The translations under genes and the position numbers were made by a program. Below are positions 24,822 through 40,841 of a stretch of 64,000 nt of DNA, piece by piece; within the stretch, counting starts at the first letter, position 1, and the number at the start of each line of letters is the position of its first letter. The DNA lies in assembly GCA_963732385.1 (NCBI GenBank), contig CAVSZB010000006.1, forward strand, positions 64,001 to 128,000, in the 5' to 3' direction. The notes beneath the pieces are model-generated. The model ran no database searches. It saw only the letters and a program-made list of their open reading frames with translations, and was not told the DNA's origin. Source of the stretch: an uncultured bacterium. GTDB taxonomy: Bacteria > Krumholzibacteriota > Krumholzibacteriia > LZORAL124-64-63.

Positions 24822-24841
<20 letters not shown>
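23381..24841 (-). CDS. actC: Alternative complex III subunit ActC (NrfD/PsrC family)
   Basis: [61 protein letters not shown]. Confidence 0.95.
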
Positions 24842-28552
<3,711 letters not shown>

Positions 28553-29112: not shown

Positions 29113-31215
29113 ATGTCCGACCGCGCCACCCCCCTCACCCCTGCGCGGATCCGCCGCGATGGCAATGCCCTGCAGCGCGAAACCTCGCTCTACCTGCGTC
29201 AGCACGCCCACAATCCGCTCGACTGGCGGCCGTGGGGTGACGAGGCGCTCGAGCGCGCGCGGGTGGGCCGGCTGCCGATCTTCCTGTCGATCGGCTACGC
29301 GTCGTGCCACTGGTGCCATGTCATGGAGCGCGAGGTGTTCGAGAACGACGAAGTGGCGGCGTACCTGAACGCGCATTTCGTCTGCATCAAGGTCGACCGC
29401 GAGGAACGTCCCGACCTCGACGCCGTCTACATGGACGCCGTCCAGGGGATGACCGGCGCGGGCGGCTGGCCGCTGTCGGTCTTCCTGACCGCCGACGCGC
29501 AGCCGATCTACGGCGGCACGTACTTCCCGGCGCCGCAGTTCCTCGAACTGGCGCGCCGGGTGCGCGAAGTGTACGTGACGCGGACCGGCGAGGTGGAGGA
29601 GCAGGCTGCCGCCGTCGCGGCGCGCCTGCTGGCGGGCCCGACCTTCGCCGACGAAGCGGCCGGCGGCGTCATCGACGCCGAGCTGATCGACGCCGTCGCC
29701 GCGCGCGCGGTCGCGCTGTTCGACCCGGAGTGGGGCGGTTTCACCGGCCCGGCGAAGTTTCCTGTCCCGCCGCGCTGGCAGTTCCTGCTGCACCACCACC
29801 GCCGCACCGGCGACGTGCGGTCGGCCCGCCTGCTTGGCCTGACCCTCACCACGATGGCCTCGGGCGGCATCTACGACCACGTCGGCGGCGGCTTCCACCG
29901 CTACGCCACCGATGCGGCGTGGCTCGTGCCGCACTTCGAGAAGATGCTCTACGACAACGCCCTCCTGGCGAGCCTCTACCTCGAGGCCGGCCTGGTCCTG
30001 CAGCAGCCGCTGCTGCTGGCGGTCGCCCGCGACACGCTCGCCTTCCTGGTGCGGGAGATGAGCGGCCCCGAAGGGGGCTTCTACGCCAGCTTCGATGCCG
30101 ACAGTGGCGGCCTGGAGGGGAGCTACTACGTCTGGACGCCCGACGACCTCTCCCTCGTGGCCGGACCGGAGGACGGGCCGGCGCTGGCCGGCCTGCTCGG
30201 CGTGACCGCAGCCGGCAACTTCGCCGACGGCGCGAGCGTGCTGACCCGCCGCGCCGACCTCGCCGAACTGGCCGCGCGCCACGGTCGCGACGAGGCGGAG
30301 ATCGCCGCCCTCTTCAACGAATATCGCGATGAACTGCGCGACTATCGCGACCGTCGCGAAGGTCCCACCCTCGACACCAAGGTGATCACCGCCTGGAACG
30401 GCCTGGCCATCTCCGCCCTGGCCCAGGCGTACGGCGCCACCGGCGAGCCGGCCTGGCGCATCGCCGCCGAGCGCGCCGCCGACTGGCTCGAACAGGCCCA
30501 CCGCCGCCCCGACGGCCGCCTCCTGCGTGCCGGCACCGACGGCCCCGCCACCGGCGACGGCATTCTCGAAGACTACGCCTTCCTCGCCGTCGGCCTGCTC
30601 GACCTCTACCAGGCCACCGGCGATGAGTCGCGCCTGCGTCGCGCCCTCGAGCTGATCGACATCACCCGGCGCGACTTCGCCGACCCCGCCGGAGGCTGCT
30701 GGCTGACCGCCGCCGCCGCCGAAGTCCCCCTCGGCCGCAAGACCGAGCTGTTCGACAGCGTGACCCCCTCCGGCAATTCCGCCTTCCTCCAGGCCCTGCT
30801 GCGCGCCGCCGCCCTGACCGGCCGCGATGAGTACCGGGAAGAGGCCGCCCGCACGATTGCGCGCTACGCCGTCATCATGGAAAAAGCGGGGCTGGAGATG
30901 GCCTGGTGGTTCGATGCGGCTTTGCGGCTGAACGGACCGTTCTATGACGTGGTGGTGGCCGGCGATCCCGCCGACGCGGCGACGCGCGCGCTGACCGCCA
31001 CGGTCACCCGCCTGCTGCCGCCGCATGTGACGCTGGCGCGGGTGTCGGCGGCGGGAGCGTCTGCGGATCTCGCTGCCCTGCTGCCCGCCGCGACGGGCAA
31101 GGTCGCGCGGGATGGCGGGCCGTGCGCCTACGTGTGCGAGCACGGCGCCTGCCTCGAACCGGCCACGGACCCGGACGCGTTGCGCGAGCAGTTGCTGGCG
31201 GGGTGGGCGAGGTAG
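29113..31215 (+). CDS. Thioredoxin-domain protein, YyaL/SSP411 family
   Basis: YLRQHAHNPLDW, SIGYASCHWCHVMERE, KVDREERPDLD, GGFHRY, PHFEKMLYDNA, DTKVITAWNGL. Confidence 0.95.
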   Translation: MSDRATPLTPARIRRDGNALQRETSLYLRQHAHNPLDWRPWGDEALERARVGRLPIFLSIGYASCHWCHVMEREVFENDEVAAYLNAHFVCIKVDREERPDLDAVYMDAVQGMTGAGGWPLSVFLTADAQPIYGGTYFPAPQFLELARRVREVYVTRTGEVEEQAAAVAARLLAGPTFADEAAGGVIDAELIDAVAARAVALFDPEWGGFTGPAKFPVPPRWQFLLHHHRRTGDVRSARLLGLTLTTMASGGIYDHVGGGFHRYATDAAWLVPHFEKMLYDNALLASLYLEAGLVLQQPLLLAVARDTLAFLVREMSGPEGGFYASFDADSGGLEGSYYVWTPDDLSLVAGPEDGPALAGLLGVTAAGNFADGASVLTRRADLAELAARHGRDEAEIAALFNEYRDELRDYRDRREGPTLDTKVITAWNGLAISALAQAYGATGEPAWRIAAERAADWLEQAHRRPDGRLLRAGTDGPATGDGILEDYAFLAVGLLDLYQATGDESRLRRALELIDITRRDFADPAGGCWLTAAAAEVPLGRKTELFDSVTPSGNSAFLQALLRAAALTGRDEYREEAARTIARYAVIMEKAGLEMAWWFDAALRLNGPFYDVVVAGDPADAATRALTATVTRLLPPHVTLARVSAAGASADLAALLPAATGKVARDGGPCAYVCEHGACLEPATDPDALREQLLAGWAR

Positions 31216-31592
31216 GGGGGGCGTTCGCTGTCGCAACGCGGTGTGAAATCCTCCCGGTCGACCGGGGCCGGTTGTTACGCCCAGGCACCGCCCTTCTCGA
31301 CGCGCAGGTCCCAGGCGGGGTACAATGCAAGGAGGCGGCGGGATGCGTCAGGCGACCGCCAGGGGCGAGGCGCCTGTTCGTCCTCCCCGCCATGCGTTCA
31401 GCCGACGAGTCGGGGTGCACGCCATGTACGGGCTGGGGATGGGAAGCGGGGGTTTGCATGGGGACGCACAGTTCGCGCGGTGGCGGCCCGGTTGCCCGTG
31501 GCGTCGATTCGCCTGCGTCTCGGCGGGCACGCGAGCCATGGAGCGCGGGCCCATGAACGCTGCGGACAGGCGGCCGGCGCCGGAGGAACCGG

Positions 31593-33395
31593 ATGTCGGG
31601 CGCTGACCTCGCGGATCGCGGCCCCGGTCCGGCCCCTCCATCCCGCCGCACCAGTCTCGGCCGGTTGCTGCGCTATCTGAAGCCGCACTGGCGTCGGCAG
31701 GTCGTCACGCTGGGCTTCCTGGTCTCCGGAACTGGCGTCTCGCTGCTGGTCCCGCTGCTGATCAGGCGGATCGTGGACGTGGCGCTGCCCGCGCGGGACG
31801 GGGCGCAGCTCCTGCAACTCGTGGGCATGATGGCGGGCATCCATCTGCTGTCCGCCCTGCTGCTGCTCGCCACCGATTACTACTTCCTGCGCGTGAGCAA
31901 CGCCATCGTGCTCGATCTGCGACGCGACATGCACGACCACCTGCTGCGTCTGTCGCTCGATTATTTCGAGGGGAACAAGGCCGGCCAGACGATGGCGCGG
32001 ATCATGGGCGACGTGGACTCCGTGCAGATGCTGACCACGAACGCCTTCCTGATGCTGCTCACCGACTGCTTCTCCGTCCTGCTGATGCTGGGATTCATGC
32101 TGTACCTGAGCTGGCCCCTGACGCTGGTGAGCCTGGTGACGCTCGCGTTGCTGGTGTTGATCACGCGGATCTTCAGCCATCGTGTGCTGGCGTCGGCGCG
32201 GCTGAACCGCGAGAAGTACGCGGCGATTTCCGAGGACCTGCAGGAGACGATCGCGGGCGTGAAGGAGATCAAGGTGTTCGCGCGCGAACCGCTGCGCAGC
32301 GCGTTCTTCGCCGGGCGCCTGGCGGAATTCGCCCGGGCGAGCATCCGGCTCGGGATGTGGGGCTCGGCGTCCCGGCTGCTGAGCGTGCTCGTGATTTCGG
32401 TCGGTCCCGTGCTCGTCTATTACTACGGCGGCCGGAGCGTGATCGGTGGCACGGCCACCATCGGCCTGCTCGTGGCCTTCGTCATCTACCTCGAGCGGAT
32501 GTACGAGTCGCTGCATCGCCTCTCGTACCTGAACATCCAGGTCCAGTCGGCGCTGGGGGCGGTGGAGAGGATCTTCTCGCTGCTGGACGCGCCGCCGACC
32601 GTCCTGGATTCGCCGACCGCGACGGACCTGCCCGCTCCGCGGGGCGAGATCGAGCTGCAGGGAGTGACCTTCCGGTACGTCCCGGACCGGCCGCCCGCCC
32701 TGAAGGACGCCAGCCTGCGCGTGTGCGCGGGCGAACGGGTGGCTCTCGTGGGACGCAGCGGTTCGGGCAAGAGCACGGTGGCCAATCTCGTCTGCCGCTT
32801 CCACGACGCGCAGGAGGGGCGCGTCCTGCTGGACGGGCGGGATGTGCGTAACCTGCGCCTGGCCGATCTGCGCGCGGTGATCGGCATCGTGCCGCAGGAG
32901 GCGTTCTTCTTCCATGCCAGCGTCGCCGAGAATCTGCGCTTCGCCCGGCCGGAGGCGACGCAGGCGGAGCTCGAGGCCGCCACGCGCCAGGCCGACGCCC
33001 ACGATTTCATTCTCGCCATGCCTGCCGGCTACGACACGATCATCGGCGAGCGCGGCAGCCGGCTCAGCGGGGGACAGCGCCAGCGTCTCGCCATAGCGCG
33101 CGTCCTGCTGCGGGACCCCCGGATCGTGATCCTCGACGAAGCCACCTCCGCACTGGACGCCGAGACCGAACGGCAGGTCAGGGTGGCGATGGGGCGCCTC
33201 GCGCTCGGCCGTACCACCCTCGTCATCTCGCACCGTCTCTCCACCGTCGCCGACGCCGACCGGATCCTCGTGCTGGACGATGGCGAGATCGTCGAGGCGG
33301 GCGATCATCGCACCCTGATGGCGCAGGGAGGCGTGTACAGGCGGCTCTGCGATCAGCAGGCGCAGGGGCAAGCCGTCGTCGGCGAAGATTCCTGA
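31593..33395 (+). CDS. ABC exporter, fused TMD-NBD (MsbA/MdlB-like; no peptidase domain)
   Basis: Six TM helices, GRSGSGKST, LSGGQRQRLAIAR, ILDEATSALD. Confidence 0.95.
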   Translation: MSGADLADRGPGPAPPSRRTSLGRLLRYLKPHWRRQVVTLGFLVSGTGVSLLVPLLIRRIVDVALPARDGAQLLQLVGMMAGIHLLSALLLLATDYYFLRVSNAIVLDLRRDMHDHLLRLSLDYFEGNKAGQTMARIMGDVDSVQMLTTNAFLMLLTDCFSVLLMLGFMLYLSWPLTLVSLVTLALLVLITRIFSHRVLASARLNREKYAAISEDLQETIAGVKEIKVFAREPLRSAFFAGRLAEFARASIRLGMWGSASRLLSVLVISVGPVLVYYYGGRSVIGGTATIGLLVAFVIYLERMYESLHRLSYLNIQVQSALGAVERIFSLLDAPPTVLDSPTATDLPAPRGEIELQGVTFRYVPDRPPALKDASLRVCAGERVALVGRSGSGKSTVANLVCRFHDAQEGRVLLDGRDVRNLRLADLRAVIGIVPQEAFFFHASVAENLRFARPEATQAELEAATRQADAHDFILAMPAGYDTIIGERGSRLSGGQRQRLAIARVLLRDPRIVILDEATSALDAETERQVRVAMGRLALGRTTLVISHRLSTVADADRILVLDDGEIVEAGDHRTLMAQGGVYRRLCDQQAQGQAVVGEDS

Positions 33396-33413
33396 CGAAT
33401 GGCGAACCGGCGG

Positions 33414-34448
33414 CTACGTCTTCAGCGCGGTGCGATACAGGCAGAGCGGGACGGCAGCCCTGATGTCGCCGGTGTAGGCCAGCGCCGAGCCGCGGCAGCC
33501 GCCGCGGCAGTTGGGGTAGTTCTCGCAGCGGAGGCAGCGCCCGGCGATCTCGTCGCGCGCGAAATCAGCCATGACCGGCATGGCGGGGTCGGACCAGAGA
33601 TCGGCGATGCGCGTCTGGCGGGTGTTGCCGACCAGAAAGTCCGGGTGGACCAGGGCTGTGCACGGGTAGACGTCGCCGTTGGCCCGCAGATAGAGAGTGC
33701 GCGTCCCCGCGCTGCACTTGTGGAAGCCGAAATCCGGTGGCACAGGACCGAACCCGACGTCGAAGGAAATCAGGATGGACGGATCTTTTTGAGCCTGCTG
33801 GATGAAGGCGAGCAGGTCGGTCGCCTCCTCGGCGATGAGCAGACGCTGTCTGATCTGTTCCTGCTGGCCGCGGCCGGCCGGCGTGAAGCAGGAGAACCTG
33901 ATACTGTCCACCCCCTCCCGTTTGCCCAGCGCGATCAGTTCGCCTGCGTCCGCAAGGTTTTCACGGCCCACCACGGAGGCCATGATCACGCGGGCGCCCT
34001 GGCTCTTCGCCGCGCGAATGCCCTGCAGGACAGCCTGGAACTCCGCGTCGCTCGCACCGCGGATACGCCGGTTCAACTCCGGCGTGGAGCCGTCGAGGCT
34101 GACCTGGATGGTGCGGCAGCCGGCCTGGATCAGGCCTCGCGTCCGTTCGGGATCGAGCAGCACGCCGTTGGTCGTGATCGTGGAGTGGATCCCCTGCGCC
34201 CAGGCGTGCGCCGCCAGTTCCTCCAGGTCGCGCCGCAGGAGCGGCTCGCCGCCTGTCCAGCTGATCGTCCCGGCCCCCAGAGCGGCCAGGTCGTCGATGA
34301 GCCCTCGGCACTCGTCGGTGCCCATCTCGTCGCGCGGACGTTCAGCGGTGGCGCTGTAGCAGTGGACGCAGCGCAGGTTGCACAGGTTGGTGATTTCCCA
34401 GCCGACGATTTCCGGCTTTTGCGAACGGACGGCCTCGGGATCTGACAT
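33414..34448 (-). CDS. Radical SAM/SPASM enzyme (PqqE/MftC/NirJ-like branch)
   Basis: CNLRCVHC, TGGEPL, SLDG, SPASM motifs CSAG...GDVYPC...CLRCENYPNCRGGC...C. Confidence 0.9.
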   Translation of the reverse strand: MSDPEAVRSQKPEIVGWEITNLCNLRCVHCYSATAERPRDEMGTDECRGLIDDLAALGAGTISWTGGEPLLRRDLEELAAHAWAQGIHSTITTNGVLLDPERTRGLIQAGCRTIQVSLDGSTPELNRRIRGASDAEFQAVLQGIRAAKSQGARVIMASVVGRENLADAGELIALGKREGVDSIRFSCFTPAGRGQQEQIRQRLLIAEEATDLLAFIQQAQKDPSILISFDVGFGPVPPDFGFHKCSAGTRTLYLRANGDVYPCTALVHPDFLVGNTRQTRIADLWSDPAMPVMADFARDEIAGRCLRCENYPNCRGGCRGSALAYTGDIRAAVPLCLYRTALKT

Positions 34449-34484
34449 GTCAGGTTCCTCGTCTGCGCGGGGTGATGGGCGCGG

Positions 34485-35810
34485 CTATGTCTGTGCGGTC
34501 ATGGTTGCGCGGTAGGCGAGTTCCAGCATGTCCCCGAGATTGTACTTCCAGGGGGGGCACACGCCCTGGCTCGCGTCCGGCTGGGCCAGTCCCCGGGCCG
34601 GGCAGCCGCCCATGCAGACCGGAGCGTGGGCGCAGGAGCGGCAGCCGCTCAACGCCAGAGGTTGCCAGGCTTGGTAAGCCTCGCAGTTCGCCTGTTGCGC
34701 GGCGCTCAGCGTCTCGGAGAAGACGCTGCCGATCGACCGGTCGGCGTCCAGGGACAGCTCCTCCCAGCACTTGAACAGGTATCCATTGGGTCCCACGGAA
34801 TAGTAGCCGTCGGCGATGGCGCCGCACATCCCGCCAGATGCGATTTGGGGACGGTCGATCTTTTCGATGCCATTGGCCGCGAGTTGCCCGTACAGCCGCA
34901 CCAGGATGCGGGCGAATTCTGCGTTGTCATGGCAGCGGTCACGGATGTCGGCGCAGACCGCCCCGGACGGGAAGATTGGCGCGAAGGTCACCCTGACCTT
35001 GTCGAGCACGCCGCGCTCCTGCAGAACGGTCACGGCCGCCGGTGCGCAATCCACGTTGTCCTTGTCGATGTTGATGCGCACGTCGATGTCCAGGATCCCG
35101 GCCGCCGCACAGAGATTGTCGATGATGCGCGCGAACGTTCCCTGCCCGTTGTGCAGCTTGCGACGCCGGTCATGCATCTCCTGGGAGCCGTCGAGCGTGA
35201 TCTGGGCGCGCGTGATCCCCAACTCGCGCAGGCGCTGCGCCATGGCGACATCCAGCAGATATCCGTTCGTGATGATCTGGCCGGGATGCAGGTGCACCTG
35301 GTGTTTCTCGGCCAGTTCGAGGAACCGTTGCTGCAGCCTTTCGATCAGGGGGAAGCAGAGCGTCGGCTCACCGCCGAACCAGCAGAGGCGCAGGCCGTCG
35401 GCCCGGTACAGATGGCGATCGGTGAACGCCAGGAGCGCGGTCTGGGTCTCGTCGCTCATGCGGACGCTGGACCGGGATTCGAAGCAGTAGTCGCAGCCGA
35501 AGTTGCAGGCCAGCGTGGGCGCGATCGTCAGCGTGAGGACGGACCCCTCCAGCCTGTCCGTGCGGGCCCTCATTTCCAGGGCCGTTCGCTGATCGACTGC
35601 GTCCGGGATGAGAAAGCCGCCGTCGCGCAGGCACTGGAAATATTCCGCGGCCTGGCCCGCAAACGTCGCGTTGGGATTCGCCAGCACGTCCTGCACGAGC
35701 GGATGATTCTCGCCCTCGATTTCGGCGATGGCTCCCGAATAGGAGTTGTAGCCGAGCACGATCCGGCCATCGAGGATCGGAAAGAAGAAATTGAAGGGGG
35801 ACGGTTTCAT
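34485..35810 (-). CDS. Radical SAM/SPASM peptide maturase (Clo7bot / Cys-rich-peptide maturase-like)
   Basis: N-terminal MKPSPFNFFF...YNSYSGA (RRE-like domain of about 90 aa), TIAPTLACNFGCDYCFE, WFGGEP, QITLDG, KCW, CRSCAHAPVCMGGCP. Confidence 0.9.
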   Translation of the reverse strand: MKPSPFNFFFPILDGRIVLGYNSYSGAIAEIEGENHPLVQDVLANPNATFAGQAAEYFQCLRDGGFLIPDAVDQRTALEMRARTDRLEGSVLTLTIAPTLACNFGCDYCFESRSSVRMSDETQTALLAFTDRHLYRADGLRLCWFGGEPTLCFPLIERLQQRFLELAEKHQVHLHPGQIITNGYLLDVAMAQRLRELGITRAQITLDGSQEMHDRRRKLHNGQGTFARIIDNLCAAAGILDIDVRINIDKDNVDCAPAAVTVLQERGVLDKVRVTFAPIFPSGAVCADIRDRCHDNAEFARILVRLYGQLAANGIEKIDRPQIASGGMCGAIADGYYSVGPNGYLFKCWEELSLDADRSIGSVFSETLSAAQQANCEAYQAWQPLALSGCRSCAHAPVCMGGCPARGLAQPDASQGVCPPWKYNLGDMLELAYRATMTAQT

Positions 35811-35862
35811 GCTTTCCTCTGCGGAAGTGAAGCCGGCAGGCCGGCCGCAGGCGACAACAAAG

Positions 35863-35899
35863 ACCCGTGCGCCAACCGGCACGCGGTCGGCGCACGGGT
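35863..35899 (-). terminator. Stem-loop between the precursor and the maturase (attenuator/stabiliser)
   Basis: ACCCGTGCGCC/GGCGCACGGGT perfect 11-bp stem with further pairing inside; followed by CTTTGTT on the minus strand. Confidence 0.7.
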
Positions 35900-35919
35900 G
35901 AACGGCGGGCTACCGCATC

Positions 35920-36018
35920 CTAACGGTAGGTCCCGCAGAGAATCCGCAGCGGCGACTTGTACGTGCAGGGCATCGGCTTGGACACGAGGCCAAAGCCAGG
36001 CAGCGAGATGAGCTTCAT
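35920..36018 (-). CDS. Putative RiPP precursor peptide, 32 aa (MKLISLPGFGLVSKPMPCTYKSPLRILCGTYR)
   Basis: Manual translation; AAGGAG 8 nt before ATG; co-oriented directly upstream of the maturase; MKxIxxP leader-like start; two Cys. Confidence 0.7.
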   Translation of the reverse strand: MKLISLPGFGLVSKPMPCTYKSPLRILCGTYR

Positions 36019-36314
36019 TGCATGGTCTCCTTTTCGCGGAAGTGAAATGTTGTGGCGGACGAACGCGCGGCCTATTGGCAGCCGCCGTCCATCCTGCCCC
36101 TGCTGCGCGCGTGCCTTCGTCCCGAGCCGCCAGGATACGGATCATGGGACAAAAATAATCAGGAAACGACACACGCGGAGTCCTGATTTCTTCATTAAGT
36201 AATATTGTATTTTCCCTTCCGATTGACTGTCAATATCAAAACTTGTCGGTTCATTCCCGGGGCCTTGCTTCGGATGTGCGCAAGAGCGGCCCCGGCATAT
36301 CTGGAGGCATCGCC

Positions 36315-36425
36315 ATGACACATCGCTCCGGAACTGTCGGTATCCTGATCCTGGCGCTGGTCGGCGCGTTGATCGCGCTGGCGGTGCTGACGACGAGTCG
36401 AGCGGGGCGGGCCGGAATATGCTAG
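36315..36425 (+). CDS. Putative small single-TM protein, 36 aa
   Basis: GGAGG SD then MTHRSGTVGILILALVGALIALAVLTTSRAGRAGIC*. Confidence 0.4.
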   Translation: MTHRSGTVGILILALVGALIALAVLTTSRAGRAGIC

Positions 36426-36616
36426 AATCGATGCTCCTCGCACGAGGGCCTGGCCGGAGCCGGAGGGGCGTCGCCCCGCCCGCGCACCGGAGTCTGGCCC
36501 ATCAACGCTGACCTGATCCTCGCGCTTTCACCTGCCGGCGTGCGGCGGGGGCTGCCCGGTCGTGGTCCCGACGGGCGGCCGCTGCCGTGGGCGCCGGCGT
36601 CACCAGGGGGATCCCG

Positions 36617-37423
36617 ATGAGACGAACCTGCCGGTTCACCGCCGCCGTCTGGCCGCTGCTGATCACCATCCTGCTGCTCGCCCCGGGCTGCAGCTCCGAT
36701 CGTCCGCTCGATCCGGCCGCAGCGCTGCCGGCGGCCGACGGGAGCTCCACGACGTTGTCGGCGACTCCGGTCGTACCCGTCGATACCCTGACGTTCGTCG
36801 AGACCTTCGACAACAAGAGCAACGTGGGGGACTGGTCCTACTTCACGACCCACGATGCGACCATCGAGATGGACGGCGGCAATCCGGGCTGGTACCTGCA
36901 CGATGACTCCGTCGTCTCGTTCGCCCCCCATCCCGGATCCGGTCTGGGCGTGACCTCGGTCTTTGCCGGGAACTACCGGGAGCAGCGGGTCCTCAGCGTG
37001 GGCATCGACCTGCGGAGCTTCGATTACGACCTGAACGTCTCGTCCCGCTATCTCACGCTCCTGGTGATGAATGATGGCGGCACGCCCGACGACGCGAGCG
37101 ATGACCGGGGGGCGTACTTCATCGGTCCCGTCAAGGTTCCGTCGAAGTATGTGGAGATGAAGTCCGGCGCCGACAAGAACGCGGCCGGCTGGGTCTCCTA
37201 CGCATTCGAGATCGCGTCGCAGTCCAACGCGTATCCGGCGGGGTGGACGGCGTTCAGCTATGCCACCGGGGCCTCGGCCAAGTCGCGCGATTCCTGGCGA
37301 CAGCTGATGGAGAGCGTTTCCTACATCCAGTTCTGGTACGGCGATCCGACGCAGTACTACCTCCTGGACAGCTATGACCTGGGGCTGGACAACCCCCGGA
37401 TCAGCCGGGAAGTGGCCAGGTAA
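36617..37423 (+). CDS. Hypothetical lipoprotein
   Basis: Signal peptide with lipobox LAPGC; globular aromatic-rich domain (ETFD...GGNPGWYL...LGLDNPRI). Confidence 0.75.
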   Translation: MRRTCRFTAAVWPLLITILLLAPGCSSDRPLDPAAALPAADGSSTTLSATPVVPVDTLTFVETFDNKSNVGDWSYFTTHDATIEMDGGNPGWYLHDDSVVSFAPHPGSGLGVTSVFAGNYREQRVLSVGIDLRSFDYDLNVSSRYLTLLVMNDGGTPDDASDDRGAYFIGPVKVPSKYVEMKSGADKNAAGWVSYAFEIASQSNAYPAGWTAFSYATGASAKSRDSWRQLMESVSYIQFWYGDPTQYYLLDSYDLGLDNPRISREVAR

Positions 37424-37503
37424 GCTGATCGACATCGCCCGGCGCGACTTCGCCGACCCCGCCGGCGGCTGCTGGCTGACCGCCGCCGCTCTGACCGGCC
37501 GCG
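37423..37503 (+). pseudogene. Scrambled duplicate of an internal yyaL segment
   Basis: 37423-37489 matches 30650-30716 (2 mismatches) and 37482-37503 matches 30805-30826 (1 mismatch), joined at a GCCGCCGC microhomology. Confidence 0.85.
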
Positions 37504-37547: not shown

Positions 37548-40500
37548 CTATTGCGGCCGCTTCACCCGCACCGGGTCTGCCGGCTGCGGCAGGATCTTCA
37601 CCTCCTGCGTCGGCAGGAGGTCGAGGGCGGCCTTCACGGCGGCCTCGAGCTGCGCGTCACGGCCGGCGGCCGCGTGCTGCGGGGTCTGTTCCACCTCGAG
37701 GTCGGGCGGGATTCCCTGGCCCTCGACCGCCCAGTTCCCGTCGGTGTCGTAGAAGCCGCCGCGCGGGGCGGTCATGAAGCCGCCGTCGACGAGATCGGGC
37801 ACATCCCAGATGCCGACGAGACCGCCCCAGGTCCGCGTGCCGACGAGCGGCCCGAGGCCCAGCTTGCGGAACATGTACGGCAACATGTCGCCGCCGGAGC
37901 CGGCCATCTCGTTGATGATCATCACCTTGGGGCCCCAGATGGCGGCATTGGGTGCGGTGAAGGGCTGCTGCGCGCCCACGGGGTTGCTGAAGAAGCCGAG
38001 CAGGCGGCGTCCCATGACGTCCACCATGTAGTCCGCGATCGAGCCGCCGTGGTTGAAGCGCTCGTCGATGATGGCGCCCTGCTTGTCCTGCTGCGCGAAG
38101 TAGTAACGGGTGAAATTCGTGTAGCCGCCCTCGCCGGTGTCGGGCACCCAGACGTAGGCCAGCCGGCCGCCCGACAGCTCGTCCACCCTGCGGCGGTTGC
38201 CCTCGATCCAGGCGCGCTGGCGCAGCGCCGTCTCGCTGGCCACCGGCACCACGGTCACCTGGCGGGCGTCCTTGTGTTCGGGCTTCGCGTTGAGCGTGAG
38301 GACGGTCTGGCGGTCAGCGGTGCGGTCGAAGAGGCTGTACACGCTCACGGCGGACGTGAGCTCGACCCCGTTGACGGCCAGCAGGTAGTCGCCCTCGCGC
38401 GCGTCGATGCCCGGGCCGCTCAGCGGGGCGCGCAGCTGCGGGTTCCAGTTCTCGCCGGCGTAGATCCGGCGGAAGCGGAAGCGGCCGTTGGCCACCTCGA
38501 AGTCGCAGCCGAGCAGGCCGACCGGCACCTTTTCGACCTCCGGCTCGTCGCCGCCGCCGGTGAACGAGTGGCCGATGCAGGTCTCGCCGCCCAGGATGTC
38601 GAGCAGGTAGGTGAGGTCGGCGCGGTGCCGCACGCTGTCCACCCACGGCGCGTAGGCGCGCCAGGCCCAGTCCAGGTCGAGGCCGTGGACGTTCTTCACG
38701 TAGAAGTAGTCGCGCTGGAAGCGCCACGCCTCGCGGAAAATCTGCTTCCACTCGGCCGCCGGGTCCACCTTGAGGCGCAGGCCGGCCAGGTTGAGCGCGC
38801 CTTCACCCGGCTTCGGCTCGCCGGAGGCGTCGGCGAGGCAGTACTTCTTGCCGTCGGGGCTGTAGAGCAGCTTCTTGCCGTCGGCCGAGAGCCGGAAGCC
38901 CGTCACGCCCTCGATCAGCTGCTTCGCCTCGCGCTTCTTCAGGTCGTAGCGGTGCAGCGTCAGCCCCTCCTGATTGGGCACCTCCTCCGTATAGAATAAG
39001 AATCCCGCCTCGCCCGCCGTCAGATCGGCGAAACGGCGCGCAGGCACGTCGAGGGCGACGATGCGCTGGTCGAGGCCGTCGAAGTCGATCCTCACCCTGA
39101 CCGGTTCCGCAGCTTTGGCGTCCTCGCCGTCGTTCCCGTCGCCCTTCCTGTCGTGCTTCGCCGCGTCCTTCTTTCCGTCCTTCCCGTCCTTCGCCTGGTC
39201 GGAGGCCGGTTCCTCATCGTCGCTCTCGGGCTTCAGGGGCGATGGCTCGTCCTTCGCCAGCACGGCGAGGTAGATCGAGCGGTTCAACGGCTGGTTGAAG
39301 GAGCTCATGTCGAGCCAGCCGACGTTCAGGCCGTAGTCGGTGCTGGCCAAAAACGCCAGGTATTTGCCGGAGGCGTCCCACGCGGGGTGGAGCGCGTCGG
39401 AGAGGCCGTCGGTGATGCGCGTGGACCGGCCGCTGTCGAGAGAGTGGACGAAGACCGCGTTGAACTGGTTGGGCAGGCGGCGGCTGTAGGCGAGCCAGCG
39501 CGAATCGGGCGACCAGGCCGGGGCGATGAACCGGTCGGGCGGTGCGAAACCCTCGTCGTCGATGCGCGTCAGCTTGCCGGTGGCGACCTCCACGAACCAC
39601 AGCGCGCGGTTGGCGTCGCCGAAGGCGAGGCAGCGTGAATCCGGCGACCAGCGCGGCGTATAGAAGAATGTCGGGTCGGGGATCGGGATGACCCGCTTCC
39701 CGTTGCCGAACTGGTCGGCGATCACCAGCTGGTACTCGCCGCCCGCGTCCGAGAACCACGATACCGAGCGGCCATCGGGCGACCACGCGGGGGCGCGGTC
39801 GGCCGCCCCGGGATCGGCCGAGAGGTTGCGCGCGTCGCCCTTCTCGGCGGGCACGGTGAAGATCTCGCCGCGCGCCTCGAACACGGCCCGCTTGCCCGCG
39901 GGGGAAAGGGCGAAGTCGGTGATCAGCTTGGCGGCGTCGACCCAGTGCGGCCGTGCCCAGGGGAAGTCGCCGTGCAGCGTCACCGGCAGCCGGCGCGGTT
40001 CTGAGCCTGCGGCGTCGAGCGCGTAGAGCCAGCCGCCGTTCTCGAACACGAGGCGGCCGGCGCCCGCCGCGAGGCGCTTGCAATCGAACTCCTTGAAGTG
40101 CGTTCGCTGCCGCAGCTCCTGCGTGACGGTGTCGTACGACCAGACGTTGTTGGCGAAGTCACGGTCGCTCAGGAAGAAGACCGTATCGCCGAGCCAGGCG
40201 GGCGAAACGTCGTTGCTCCCCTCCCAGGGCAGCTTCGTCACCGCGAGCGACGCGAGATCGACGATGCGGATCGGCTGGGCCTGCCCGCCGCGGTAGTTGC
40301 GCCATTCCGTCTCCCAGGGGGAGACCATCCGGTAGGCGATGCGGCCGCCGTCGGGCGCGTAGGCCCCCTCGGAAACGCGCGGGATCGGCAGCGGCTCGGG
40401 CAGGCCGCCCCCCTCGAGCGCGACCGTCCACAGCTTCGGCTCCGGCCGGGGCACGCAGTCCCGGCCCGAGGCGAAGAGGACGCGCCTGCCGTCCACGGTC

Positions 40501-40841
40501 CAGCCGCAAACGACGTCGTCGCCGGGGTGCCAGGTCAGCCGTCGCGGCTCGCCGCCGTCGACACCGATGACGTAGACGTCGGCGTTGCCGTCGTACTCGC
40601 CGGTGAACGCGATCAGCCGGCCGTCCGGCGAGAAGCGCGGATCGGTCTCGGCGCCGGGAAACGTGGTCAGGCGGCGCGCCTCGCCGCCGTCGCGCCCCAC
40701 GATCCAGATGTCGTCGGCGTGGACGAAGGCGACCTGCGTAGCGCTCACGTCGGGCTGGCGCAGCAGGCGCGCCTCCCCGGCGGCGGGCGGCGAGCCGGGA
40801 ACCAGGGCGAACGGCAGCAGGAACAAGAGCGCGCATCTCAT
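37548..40841 (-). CDS. Tricorn protease homolog (S41 family; beta-propellers plus PDZ)
   Basis: LLRQPDVS, PD40 repeats, IIDERFNHGG, AGSGGD catalytic motif, GTRTWGG. Confidence 0.95.
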   Translation of the reverse strand: MRCALLFLLPFALVPGSPPAAGEARLLRQPDVSATQVAFVHADDIWIVGRDGGEARRLTTFPGAETDPRFSPDGRLIAFTGEYDGNADVYVIGVDGGEPRRLTWHPGDDVVCGWTVDGRRVLFASGRDCVPRPEPKLWTVALEGGGLPEPLPIPRVSEGAYAPDGGRIAYRMVSPWETEWRNYRGGQAQPIRIVDLASLAVTKLPWEGSNDVSPAWLGDTVFFLSDRDFANNVWSYDTVTQELRQRTHFKEFDCKRLAAGAGRLVFENGGWLYALDAAGSEPRRLPVTLHGDFPWARPHWVDAAKLITDFALSPAGKRAVFEARGEIFTVPAEKGDARNLSADPGAADRAPAWSPDGRSVSWFSDAGGEYQLVIADQFGNGKRVIPIPDPTFFYTPRWSPDSRCLAFGDANRALWFVEVATGKLTRIDDEGFAPPDRFIAPAWSPDSRWLAYSRRLPNQFNAVFVHSLDSGRSTRITDGLSDALHPAWDASGKYLAFLASTDYGLNVGWLDMSSFNQPLNRSIYLAVLAKDEPSPLKPESDDEEPASDQAKDGKDGKKDAAKHDRKGDGNDGEDAKAAEPVRVRIDFDGLDQRIVALDVPARRFADLTAGEAGFLFYTEEVPNQEGLTLHRYDLKKREAKQLIEGVTGFRLSADGKKLLYSPDGKKYCLADASGEPKPGEGALNLAGLRLKVDPAAEWKQIFREAWRFQRDYFYVKNVHGLDLDWAWRAYAPWVDSVRHRADLTYLLDILGGETCIGHSFTGGGDEPEVEKVPVGLLGCDFEVANGRFRFRRIYAGENWNPQLRAPLSGPGIDAREGDYLLAVNGVELTSAVSVYSLFDRTADRQTVLTLNAKPEHKDARQVTVVPVASETALRQRAWIEGNRRRVDELSGGRLAYVWVPDTGEGGYTNFTRYYFAQQDKQGAIIDERFNHGGSIADYMVDVMGRRLLGFFSNPVGAQQPFTAPNAAIWGPKVMIINEMAGSGGDMLPYMFRKLGLGPLVGTRTWGGLVGIWDVPDLVDGGFMTAPRGGFYDTDGNWAVEGQGIPPDLEVEQTPQHAAAGRDAQLEAAVKAALDLLPTQEVKILPQPADPVRVKRPQ

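Follow-up and report, generated by a model that had tools for sequence, protein, structure and literature searches.

Radical S-adenosylmethionine (SAM) peptide maturases are a main source of new enzyme chemistry, and radical SAM products among peptides that are made by ribosomes and modified after translation (RiPPs), clusters with two radical SAM enzymes, and cysteine thioethers are all known kinds. CrpC, the sole characterized member of family TIGR04463 that we found, forms ranthionines in four-residue motifs such as CAGM and CPLV (PMC13692751). Spliceases target Tyr-Gly (PMC11626197, PMC10533398), epimerases acting on Ile or Val use an extra enzyme cysteine as hydrogen donor (PMC5682303), and TigD, from a cluster with two radical SAM enzymes, yielded no product alone (PMC10878394). 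Here we describe a locus in a 64,000-nucleotide stretch of DNA (the window: positions 64,001 to 128,000 of contig CAVSZB010000006.1, assembly GCA_963732385.1) from an uncultured bacterium of the Krumholzibacteriota, in which a 32-residue open reading frame (ORF) is accompanied by two unlike radical SAM/SPASM enzymes, termed rSAM1 and rSAM2. These three genes very likely form a real RiPP cassette, which occupies about 2.6 kb:

36018-35920, minus strand: precursor ORF of 32 residues, with an AAGGAG Shine-Dalgarno sequence 8 nucleotides 5' of the ATG.
35810-34485, minus strand: rSAM1, 441 residues, ATG at 35810, with a RiPP recognition element (RRE), a radical SAM core, a seven-cysteine SPASM domain and an extra Cx6C motif (C286/C293).
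34448-33414, minus strand: rSAM2, 344 residues, of an unnamed family, with a seven-cysteine SPASM domain and no RRE.

The window peptide has a leader of the M-K-[FL]-I type, two cysteines ten residues apart (Cys18 and Cys28) that are followed three positions on by Lys21 and Tyr31, and an Ile26-Leu27 tail motif. A first-pass annotation, made by a model from the sequence, had called this precursor hidden; it was indeed missed by the ORF track, but its exact sequence is already recorded as an unnamed predicted protein. The peptide has no match in NCBIfam or Pfam, and neither tblastn nor a hidden Markov model (HMM) found further precursor copies in the host genome. To place it we gathered the surroundings of rSAM1 relatives at 159 loci (79 in genomes, 80 in metagenomes), which are the best matches of a longer list. 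The conserved short ORF for which the annotation had suggested a search near close rSAM1 homologues is present, with 60 distinct family peptides, the window's included, among the homologous loci listed. Their leader is of the M-[KR]-[FLY]-I form and their core reads C...[FYWL]-x-I-[IL]-[PC]; these short ORFs are located 5' of rSAM1 or between both enzymes and are often present in several copies per locus (three in genome G008). Two cysteines occur in 45/60, so that a cysteine content first read as anomalous is the family norm. Among loci of the rSAM1-rSAM2 type, a peptide is found by HMM in 41 of 51 and by pattern in three more; locus L096 was left out of the HMM count on account of a short false match.

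Because the seed pattern for these peptides demanded an isoleucine, the count was redone with selection on the leader only, and a tail of the [FYWL]-x-I-x-[PCS] type was then present in 57 of 60 short ORFs. The tail residue that is invariant in the rSAM2-bearing family is Ile; the position after the Ile pair is Pro, not Cys, in 42 of the 60 peptides, and seven of them, including the window peptide, have Leu at the aromatic position of the tail. The residue three positions after a cysteine (Cys+3) is Lys, Tyr, Phe, Trp or His in 93/136 cases, against a background of 24%; 2000 shuffles average 36 such cases and never exceed 54. At the first cysteine of the 60 peptides the Cys+3 residue is Tyr in 34, Lys in 18, Phe in four, Leu in two and Trp in two.

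Among the genome's 63,050 short ORFs, the window ORF scored best (E 0.00022, with 0.45 for the runner-up) on an HMM built from 59 homologues that left out the window peptide. Two points weigh against these statistics. The window ORF leaves the top four of the HMM search once its four closest loci are also removed, and its family link thus runs via a subgroup whose tail reads I-[IL]-C and in which the I-I-C unit is repeated two or three times at ten-residue spacing in several loci. In addition, the shuffle test overstates its case, since the peptides are related to one another and the Cys+3 residue set was fixed only once they had been inspected.

rSAM1 scores 270.1 bits on the TIGR04463 model (cut-off 525), 248.9 bits on the Clo7bot model TIGR04334 (cut-off 600) and 181 bits on CefB (cut-off 600). 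The likeness to Clo7bot and other thioether maturases proposed at the outset thus holds as kinship but not as membership; neither rSAM1 nor rSAM2 reaches the cut-off of any curated maturase family in NCBIfam, where the generic SPASM domain model alone was passed. The AlphaFold model of rSAM1 has a predicted local distance difference test score (pLDDT) of 89.6 and begins with three strands followed by helices, the pattern of an RRE. Its best fold match is CteB (Z 27.2, root-mean-square deviation 4.2, 405 aligned residues), and this alignment covers residues 4-436, including the predicted N-terminal RRE for which the first-pass annotation had suggested a check. The RiPP architecture that it had claimed is supported. 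SPASM cysteines 329/348/403 and 390/393/399/418 are invariant in 109/109 family members, and this 3+4 layout, like the RRE, matches CrpC (PMC13692751). An RRE-bearing radical SAM/SPASM enzyme next to a cysteine-containing precursor, a feature of the ranthipeptide class, is present here. From this sequence evidence rSAM1 is predicted to be a Cys-to-(i+3) thioether synthase. The RRE would bind the short M-K-[FL]-I leader, and rSAM1 would then probably, as the Cys+3 preference suggests, link Cys18 to Lys21 and Cys28 to Tyr31, each with a loss of 2 Da and with the alpha carbon probably not the site of attachment.

Two features of rSAM1 tell against this assignment. Thioether synthases are thought to need an open iron site, and the extra C286/C293 pair, which is present in 109/109 family members and in 28/28 members of a sister clade, could fill that of rSAM1. 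Furthermore, rSAM1 shares only two of six catalytic-site residues with CteB (F,F,I,T,W,E versus F,F,T,S,H,Q; PMC10288494). Both features, together with the prevalence of aromatic residues at first-Cys+3 (40/60), would suit an enzyme with a fully ligated auxiliary cluster that makes some other link, for example Cys-aryl or C-C. We consider such a link unlikely, since Lys (18/60) and Leu also occur at Cys+3, the ranthionines made by CrpC, the one characterized enzyme in the best-scoring family, have varied acceptors (PMC13692751), and the GYW motif of cyclopropane synthases is found in 0/109 rSAM1 family members. The same motif is found in 0/116 members of the rSAM2 family.

An rSAM2 orthologue is present in all 37 loci that have an rSAM1 at least 41% identical over 300 residues and 1.3 kb of downstream sequence. 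The enzyme has no RRE, and its model has a pLDDT of 95.4. Its HMM scores are 173 bits for MftC (cut-off 265), 169 for AhbC (650), 169 for AhbD (500), 147 for StsB (625) and 139.8 for GeoRSP (400). The NCBIfam model FlmE/OhkG, for which no paper was traced, gave 163 bits against a cut-off of 500, and the protein atlas returned generic radical SAM/SPASM clusters only. Six enzymes of unlike chemistry tie at Z 26-27 in a fold search with rSAM2, so the fold does not reveal the reaction. Since the three top models are MftC, AhbC and AhbD and some database entries are so named, rSAM2 might be taken for a heme or cofactor enzyme of the AhbD/NirJ/MftC kind and the short ORF for a chance occurrence, leaving no RiPP at all. 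This is most improbable: the scores lie far below the respective cut-offs, the peptides form a conserved family and frequently occur in multiple copies, and neither heme nor mycofactocin genes turn up repeatedly beside the enzyme pair.

In a tree of 130 rSAM1 sequences, all rSAM2-bearing loci form one clade (support 0.988), a second set with a different partner enzyme forms another (0.96), and clades without a second enzyme lie between the two. The second enzyme of this sister clade scores best on TIGR04103/TIGR03913, which we take to be splicease families, in 4/4 cases tested (238-255 bits, versus 78 and 121 bits for rSAM2 on these models). The peptides change with the enzyme. Sister-clade peptides have Tyr-Gly in 36/41 and the Ile tail in 0/41, whilst retaining the Cys+3 preference (Lys, Tyr, Phe, Trp or His in 85/136 cases versus a shuffle mean of 30 and maximum of 44). 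Second enzyme and tail motif thus change together between the two clades, although this link between tail and enzyme amounts to only two clades, or independent events, which limits its weight for the reading of rSAM2 given below. The putative additional chemistry of rSAM2 that the first-pass annotation had put forward gains indirect support from this joint change. The sister clade itself corresponds to a further RiPP family (L023 and L085-L178, about 27 loci, and a second cluster of G008 at C5:232-236 kb) with a related rSAM1, a splicease-like radical SAM enzyme, an ABC exporter and, in multiple copies, peptides whose tail reads P-x-Y-G-[VI]; L092, initially counted among the 27 loci, branches elsewhere in the tree. 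This family would combine thioether rings with a ketoamide. A splicease survey (Scott et al. 2022) may list it.

The SAM-binding cysteines and the seven SPASM cysteines of rSAM2, together with Q115, S117, D119, R184 and H243, are invariant in 116/116 sequences. A further cysteine, Cys186 in barrel strand 6, aligns with Ile194 of MoaA and is kept in 115/116. In the mechanism we propose, rSAM2 probably abstracts a hydrogen atom from the conserved tail isoleucine, here Ile26. What follows is less clear-cut: an oxidative outcome, desaturation or cross-linking, is possible but falls short of an even chance, and epimerization to D-allo-Ile is a little less probable again whilst being the likeliest single named reaction, the remaining share belonging to other outcomes. 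This assignment has to contend with the window copy of rSAM2, which has Ser186 and Cys187 at the candidate hydrogen-donor site, and with the occurrence of Ser at position 186 in 8 of the 26 top-scoring representatives. A sequencing error behind Ser186/Cys187 is unlikely, for the same motif is found in a second contig, maybe from the same organism. No RNA sequencing run is listed as containing this DNA; two DNA sequencing runs hold short near-identical pieces of the neighboring ABC exporter gene, rSAM2 and rSAM1, none of which spans the cassette or covers the peptide.

Two other chemistries were considered for rSAM2 and dropped: a three-residue cyclophane on aromatic-x-Ile, for the window copy, on account of the Leu at the aromatic position, and cyclopropane synthesis of the TigE type for want of a GYW motif. 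rSAM2 could instead, like StsB or SkfB, be another thioether synthase, one that joins sulfur to the alpha carbon, in which case the product would be a mixed sacti/ranthipeptide and no new reaction need be invoked. rSAM2 has three of the six StsB catalytic-site residues (Y,T,S; PMC10288494), SkfB belongs to the group that ties for top fold match (Z 27.0), and StsB shows that MftC-like enzymes can be sactisynthases (PMC10288494). We nevertheless think this improbable, given the low StsB score noted above, the Pro rather than Cys past the Ile pair in 42/60 examples of the very motif that tracks rSAM2, and the fact that in the two-Cys peptides both cysteines belong to a Cys+3 pattern common to the sister clade, which has no rSAM2.

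Our structure prediction for rSAM1 with rSAM2 suggests how an enzyme without an RRE might reach the peptide. The modelled complex has an ipSAE of 0.80 (0.80, 0.82 and 0.80 in the individual runs), with 0.01 for the best of three controls; of 157 solved complexes, 116 pass the mark applied to this score, as do 2 of 215 mismatched pairs. At least 98% of contacts are common to the runs, and both partners have a pLDDT of at least 86. rSAM1 residues 62-88, comprising the final part of the RRE together with the linker helix, contact rSAM2 residues 237-240, 309-313 and 338-342, leaving free the third RRE strand (27-32), which is the usual leader-binding edge. Of the chief contacts on the rSAM2 side, P237 is conserved in 114/116 sequences and P238 in 109/116; more distant relatives have mostly lost them. 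In this model rSAM2 docks on the linker just past the RRE of rSAM1 and so would share the bound substrate. A single natural fusion, P0274, joins a splicease-like domain to a Clo7bot-like radical SAM enzyme. Two observations weaken the case for docking: clades without a second radical SAM enzyme conserve the rSAM1 interface residues D73/E74 just as well, so that these residues give the complex no support, and the complex tool passed 7 of 44 blindly picked neighbours, its counts being only roughly valid with the alignments used. Taking these together, we judge a shared-substrate complex somewhat likelier than its absence, if slightly less secure than the assignment of rSAM1.

Fusions are seen elsewhere among relatives of rSAM2. 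Two-domain radical SAM proteins are represented by P0245, P0247, P0248, P0259, P0262 and P0274, with one sequence each; P0245, the one scanned, joins an rSAM2-like domain to a second SPASM radical SAM domain that is TIGR04133-like, and other fusions join a B12-dependent radical SAM domain to an rSAM2-like one. Such fusions to B12-dependent or TIGR04133-like partners suggest that the rSAM2-related domain is a portable tailoring module.

Tight docking would equally suit an accessory role, in which rSAM2, at least in the window copy, is a scaffold, an electron relay or a decaying partner and the product a plain ranthipeptide. The Ser in place of the near-invariant Cys186 would fit such a role, as would the precedent of TigD, the second radical SAM enzyme of the TIG cluster, which showed no activity on the peptide (PMC10878394). 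A purely accessory rSAM2 is the least likely of the three alternative enzyme roles that would still yield a RiPP, since the complete set of invariant residues is retained and the Ile tail is kept alongside rSAM2 but not in the sister clade. We therefore favor a catalytic rSAM2 acting on Ile26. Leader binding, thioether formation, docking and hydrogen abstraction have, as a set and in outline, about an even chance of being correct. A missing piece of the pathway also counts against it, as no conserved peptidase is found near the rSAM1-rSAM2 pair; the leader would be cut by an unlinked protease or retained.

More broadly, the two clades allow a tentative proposal, which we put forward as doubtful rather than probable: a plug-in architecture in which the RRE-bearing radical SAM enzyme both cross-links and offers a docking platform, to which radical SAM enzymes that lack an RRE have been recruited at least twice. 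rSAM2 would then form a stable heterodimer with it and catalyze a radical reaction not yet described, with an unactivated Ile-[Ile/Leu] motif as its target, at the site where the sister-clade splicease meets Tyr-Gly. If true, it would amount to a new RiPP class and a new way to share a leader-binding domain. The second enzymes of two-radical-SAM clusters are hard to assay, and a need for the partner's RRE is offered here as a possible reason. The cassette is small and has exactly predicted sites (Cys18-Lys21, Cys28-Tyr31 and Ile26).

The wider locus is laid out as the first-pass annotation described it, with the short ORF and its Shine-Dalgarno sequence, the hairpin, both radical SAM genes and a converging ABC exporter all at the positions it gave. 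Beyond the cassette genes its features are:

36233-36204, minus strand: sigma-70-type promoter-like site 5' of the precursor, 11/12 consensus matches, 18-nucleotide spacer.
35899-35863, minus strand: terminator-like stem-loop in the gap between precursor and rSAM1, 16 pairs, 12 of them G-C.
31593-33395, plus strand: peptidase-less ABC exporter, 600 residues, convergent with rSAM2.
31221-36406, no strand assigned: accessory module of 5.2 kb, G+C 66.8% versus 70.9% and 69.8% in the flanks.

The intergenic gaps are 109 nucleotides between precursor and rSAM1, 36 between rSAM1 and rSAM2 and 18 between rSAM2 and the exporter. By consensus match alone, the sigma-70-type scan returned 2 sites versus 0.5 expected in shuffles. 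The 121-nucleotide folded region at the stem-loop has a z of -3.2, with 2/200 shuffles equally stable. This stem-loop probably gives a surplus of precursor transcript, acting as a leaky hairpin ahead of the enzyme genes as the first step of the mechanism.

The exporter has Pfam domains ABC_membrane and ABC_tran and no peptidase domain, as had been claimed. At the window locus it probably exports the product, in the last step of the mechanism. Its inclusion in the system, a further part of the first-pass proposal, stands for this locus but not for the family: the ABC gene is a local addition rather than a family-wide part. In genome G002, of the same genus, position 31220 of the window is joined to 36407 in one contig, where all that intervenes is an exact 42-bp remnant of the ABC gene, and the exporter was thus lost together with the cassette, as a member of the same module. 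Weighing against a role in the pathway, no ABC gene lies within 3 kb downstream of rSAM2 in the 33 other loci of the type (0/33), as compared with 11/17 in the sister clade, and the nearest cluster, in G008, has none in 16 kb. These absences would be explained if the exporter were a passenger with another substrate and the family worked without dedicated export, which is possible but distinctly less likely than a role at this locus. Besides the joint loss in G002, the passenger explanation has to accommodate a tree of 41 exporters in which the window ABC groups with exporters of rSAM1-family loci (0.937), apart from the housekeeping clade, and the finding that its only close relative among 61 genomes (61% identity, G022) lies in a different cluster of radical SAM enzyme and peptide. 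That cluster (L194:2940-8208) contains a radical SAM/SPASM enzyme, a TPR-containing protein and this closest ABC, along with several short precursor ORFs rich in Cys and Pro.

The module lies at a variable insertion site, as other genes occupy it in genome G001 (L203, G001:C44:8400-14600), namely an ORF of 305 residues, whose N-terminus looks MerR-like by eye, and another of 1336 residues. A 67-nucleotide direct repeat, 97% identical, flanks the variable region at 30650-30716 and 37423-37489, the second copy being absent in G001; it is a piece of a YyaL/DsbH-family gene duplicated just 3' of a 278-residue gene, and is probably a trace of insertion or rearrangement. That gene (36587-37423, plus strand) has no match in Pfam or NCBIfam, and its product looks secreted or like a lipoprotein; it is kept in G002 and absent from the site in G001. 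A 36-residue hydrophobic ORF (36315-36425, plus strand, GGAGG Shine-Dalgarno sequence), divergent from the precursor, straddles the right junction of the module at 36407 and may be a severed signal peptide left behind by a gene since lost. Just outside the module a tricorn-type S41 protease with a signal peptide is encoded at 37548-40841 (minus strand); it is conserved in the genus and so is not specific to the cassette. On the other side lies a pair of genes for a multiheme cytochrome and an iron-sulfur protein (24822-28552, minus strand), presumably resembling ActA/ActB of alternative complex III.

The cassette family comes mainly from uncultured lineages. By depositor labels, the 36 genome loci of the rSAM1-rSAM2 type comprise 17 from Zixibacteria, 12 from Ignavibacteria, four from Acidobacteriota and three from 'uncultured bacterium'; within the host phylum it is found in 2/201 genomes, and thus extends beyond a single phylum. 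Near the paired loci, recurrence of a peptidase, a transporter or a stand-alone RRE goes no further than small groups of related genomes. A distinct arrangement is seen in acidobacterial loci L062, L063, L065, L067 and L077, which have one rSAM1 relative, an ABC gene on the opposite strand and up to five C-[SA]-E-D-P-R peptides.

In the literature searched, with most subscription journals outside its scope, we found no description or bench study of the rSAM1-rSAM2 cassette family and no radical SAM heterodimer sharing an RRE, and the spreadsheet of PMC10288494 had no matches for the terms searched. Several described systems nonetheless resemble parts of it. MftC is the closest model to rSAM2, at 173 of 265 bits, but the MftC-type precursor ends in Val-Tyr and the window peptide does not. 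GeoRSP (TIGR04280/TIGR04303) likewise has two unlike radical SAM/SPASM enzymes and a short peptide, with rSAM1 and rSAM2 at 146.7 and 139.8 bits versus cut-offs of 400. Its make-up includes a stand-alone PqqD-like gene; none recurs near the rSAM1-rSAM2 pair. TigD/TigE also pair a short peptide with two unlike radical SAM/SPASM enzymes, but the GYW motif is absent here (PMC10878394). The EpeE/YydG epimerases act on Ile/Val and use a donor cysteine (PMC5682303), for which the near-invariant strand-6 cysteine of the rSAM2 family is a candidate counterpart, replaced by serine in the window copy; the EpeE fold is a distant match to rSAM2 (Z 19.9 versus 26-27 for six others).

The closest relatives of rSAM1 lie in three systems. 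Clo7bot (TIGR04334/TIGR04333) has a similar M-K-[YF]-I leader, and distant rSAM1 loci carry Cys-rich peptides of that type. The window peptide, however, has no TIGR04333 match (one of 14 peptides gives a leader-only match, E 0.91), and this family has two cysteines, an Ile tail and a dedicated second enzyme. CrpA/CrpC of Methanococcus voltae (PMC13692751) has the top-scoring rSAM1 HMM, an RRE, a seven-cysteine SPASM domain of near-identical numbering and short motifs in which Cys precedes the acceptor, but there one radical SAM enzyme acts on a 29-kDa repeat protein, and here the putative substrate is a 32-residue two-Cys peptide accompanied also by the RRE-less rSAM2. The spliceotides (PlpXY, RcsX/RasX; PMC10533398, PMC11626197) differ in their target, as Tyr-Gly is absent from the window peptide and its letters occur in 2/60 family peptides. 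Their connection is through the sister clade, in which an RRE-less splicease-like enzyme occupies the gene position of rSAM2 and Tyr-Gly stands where the rSAM2 family has x-Ile.

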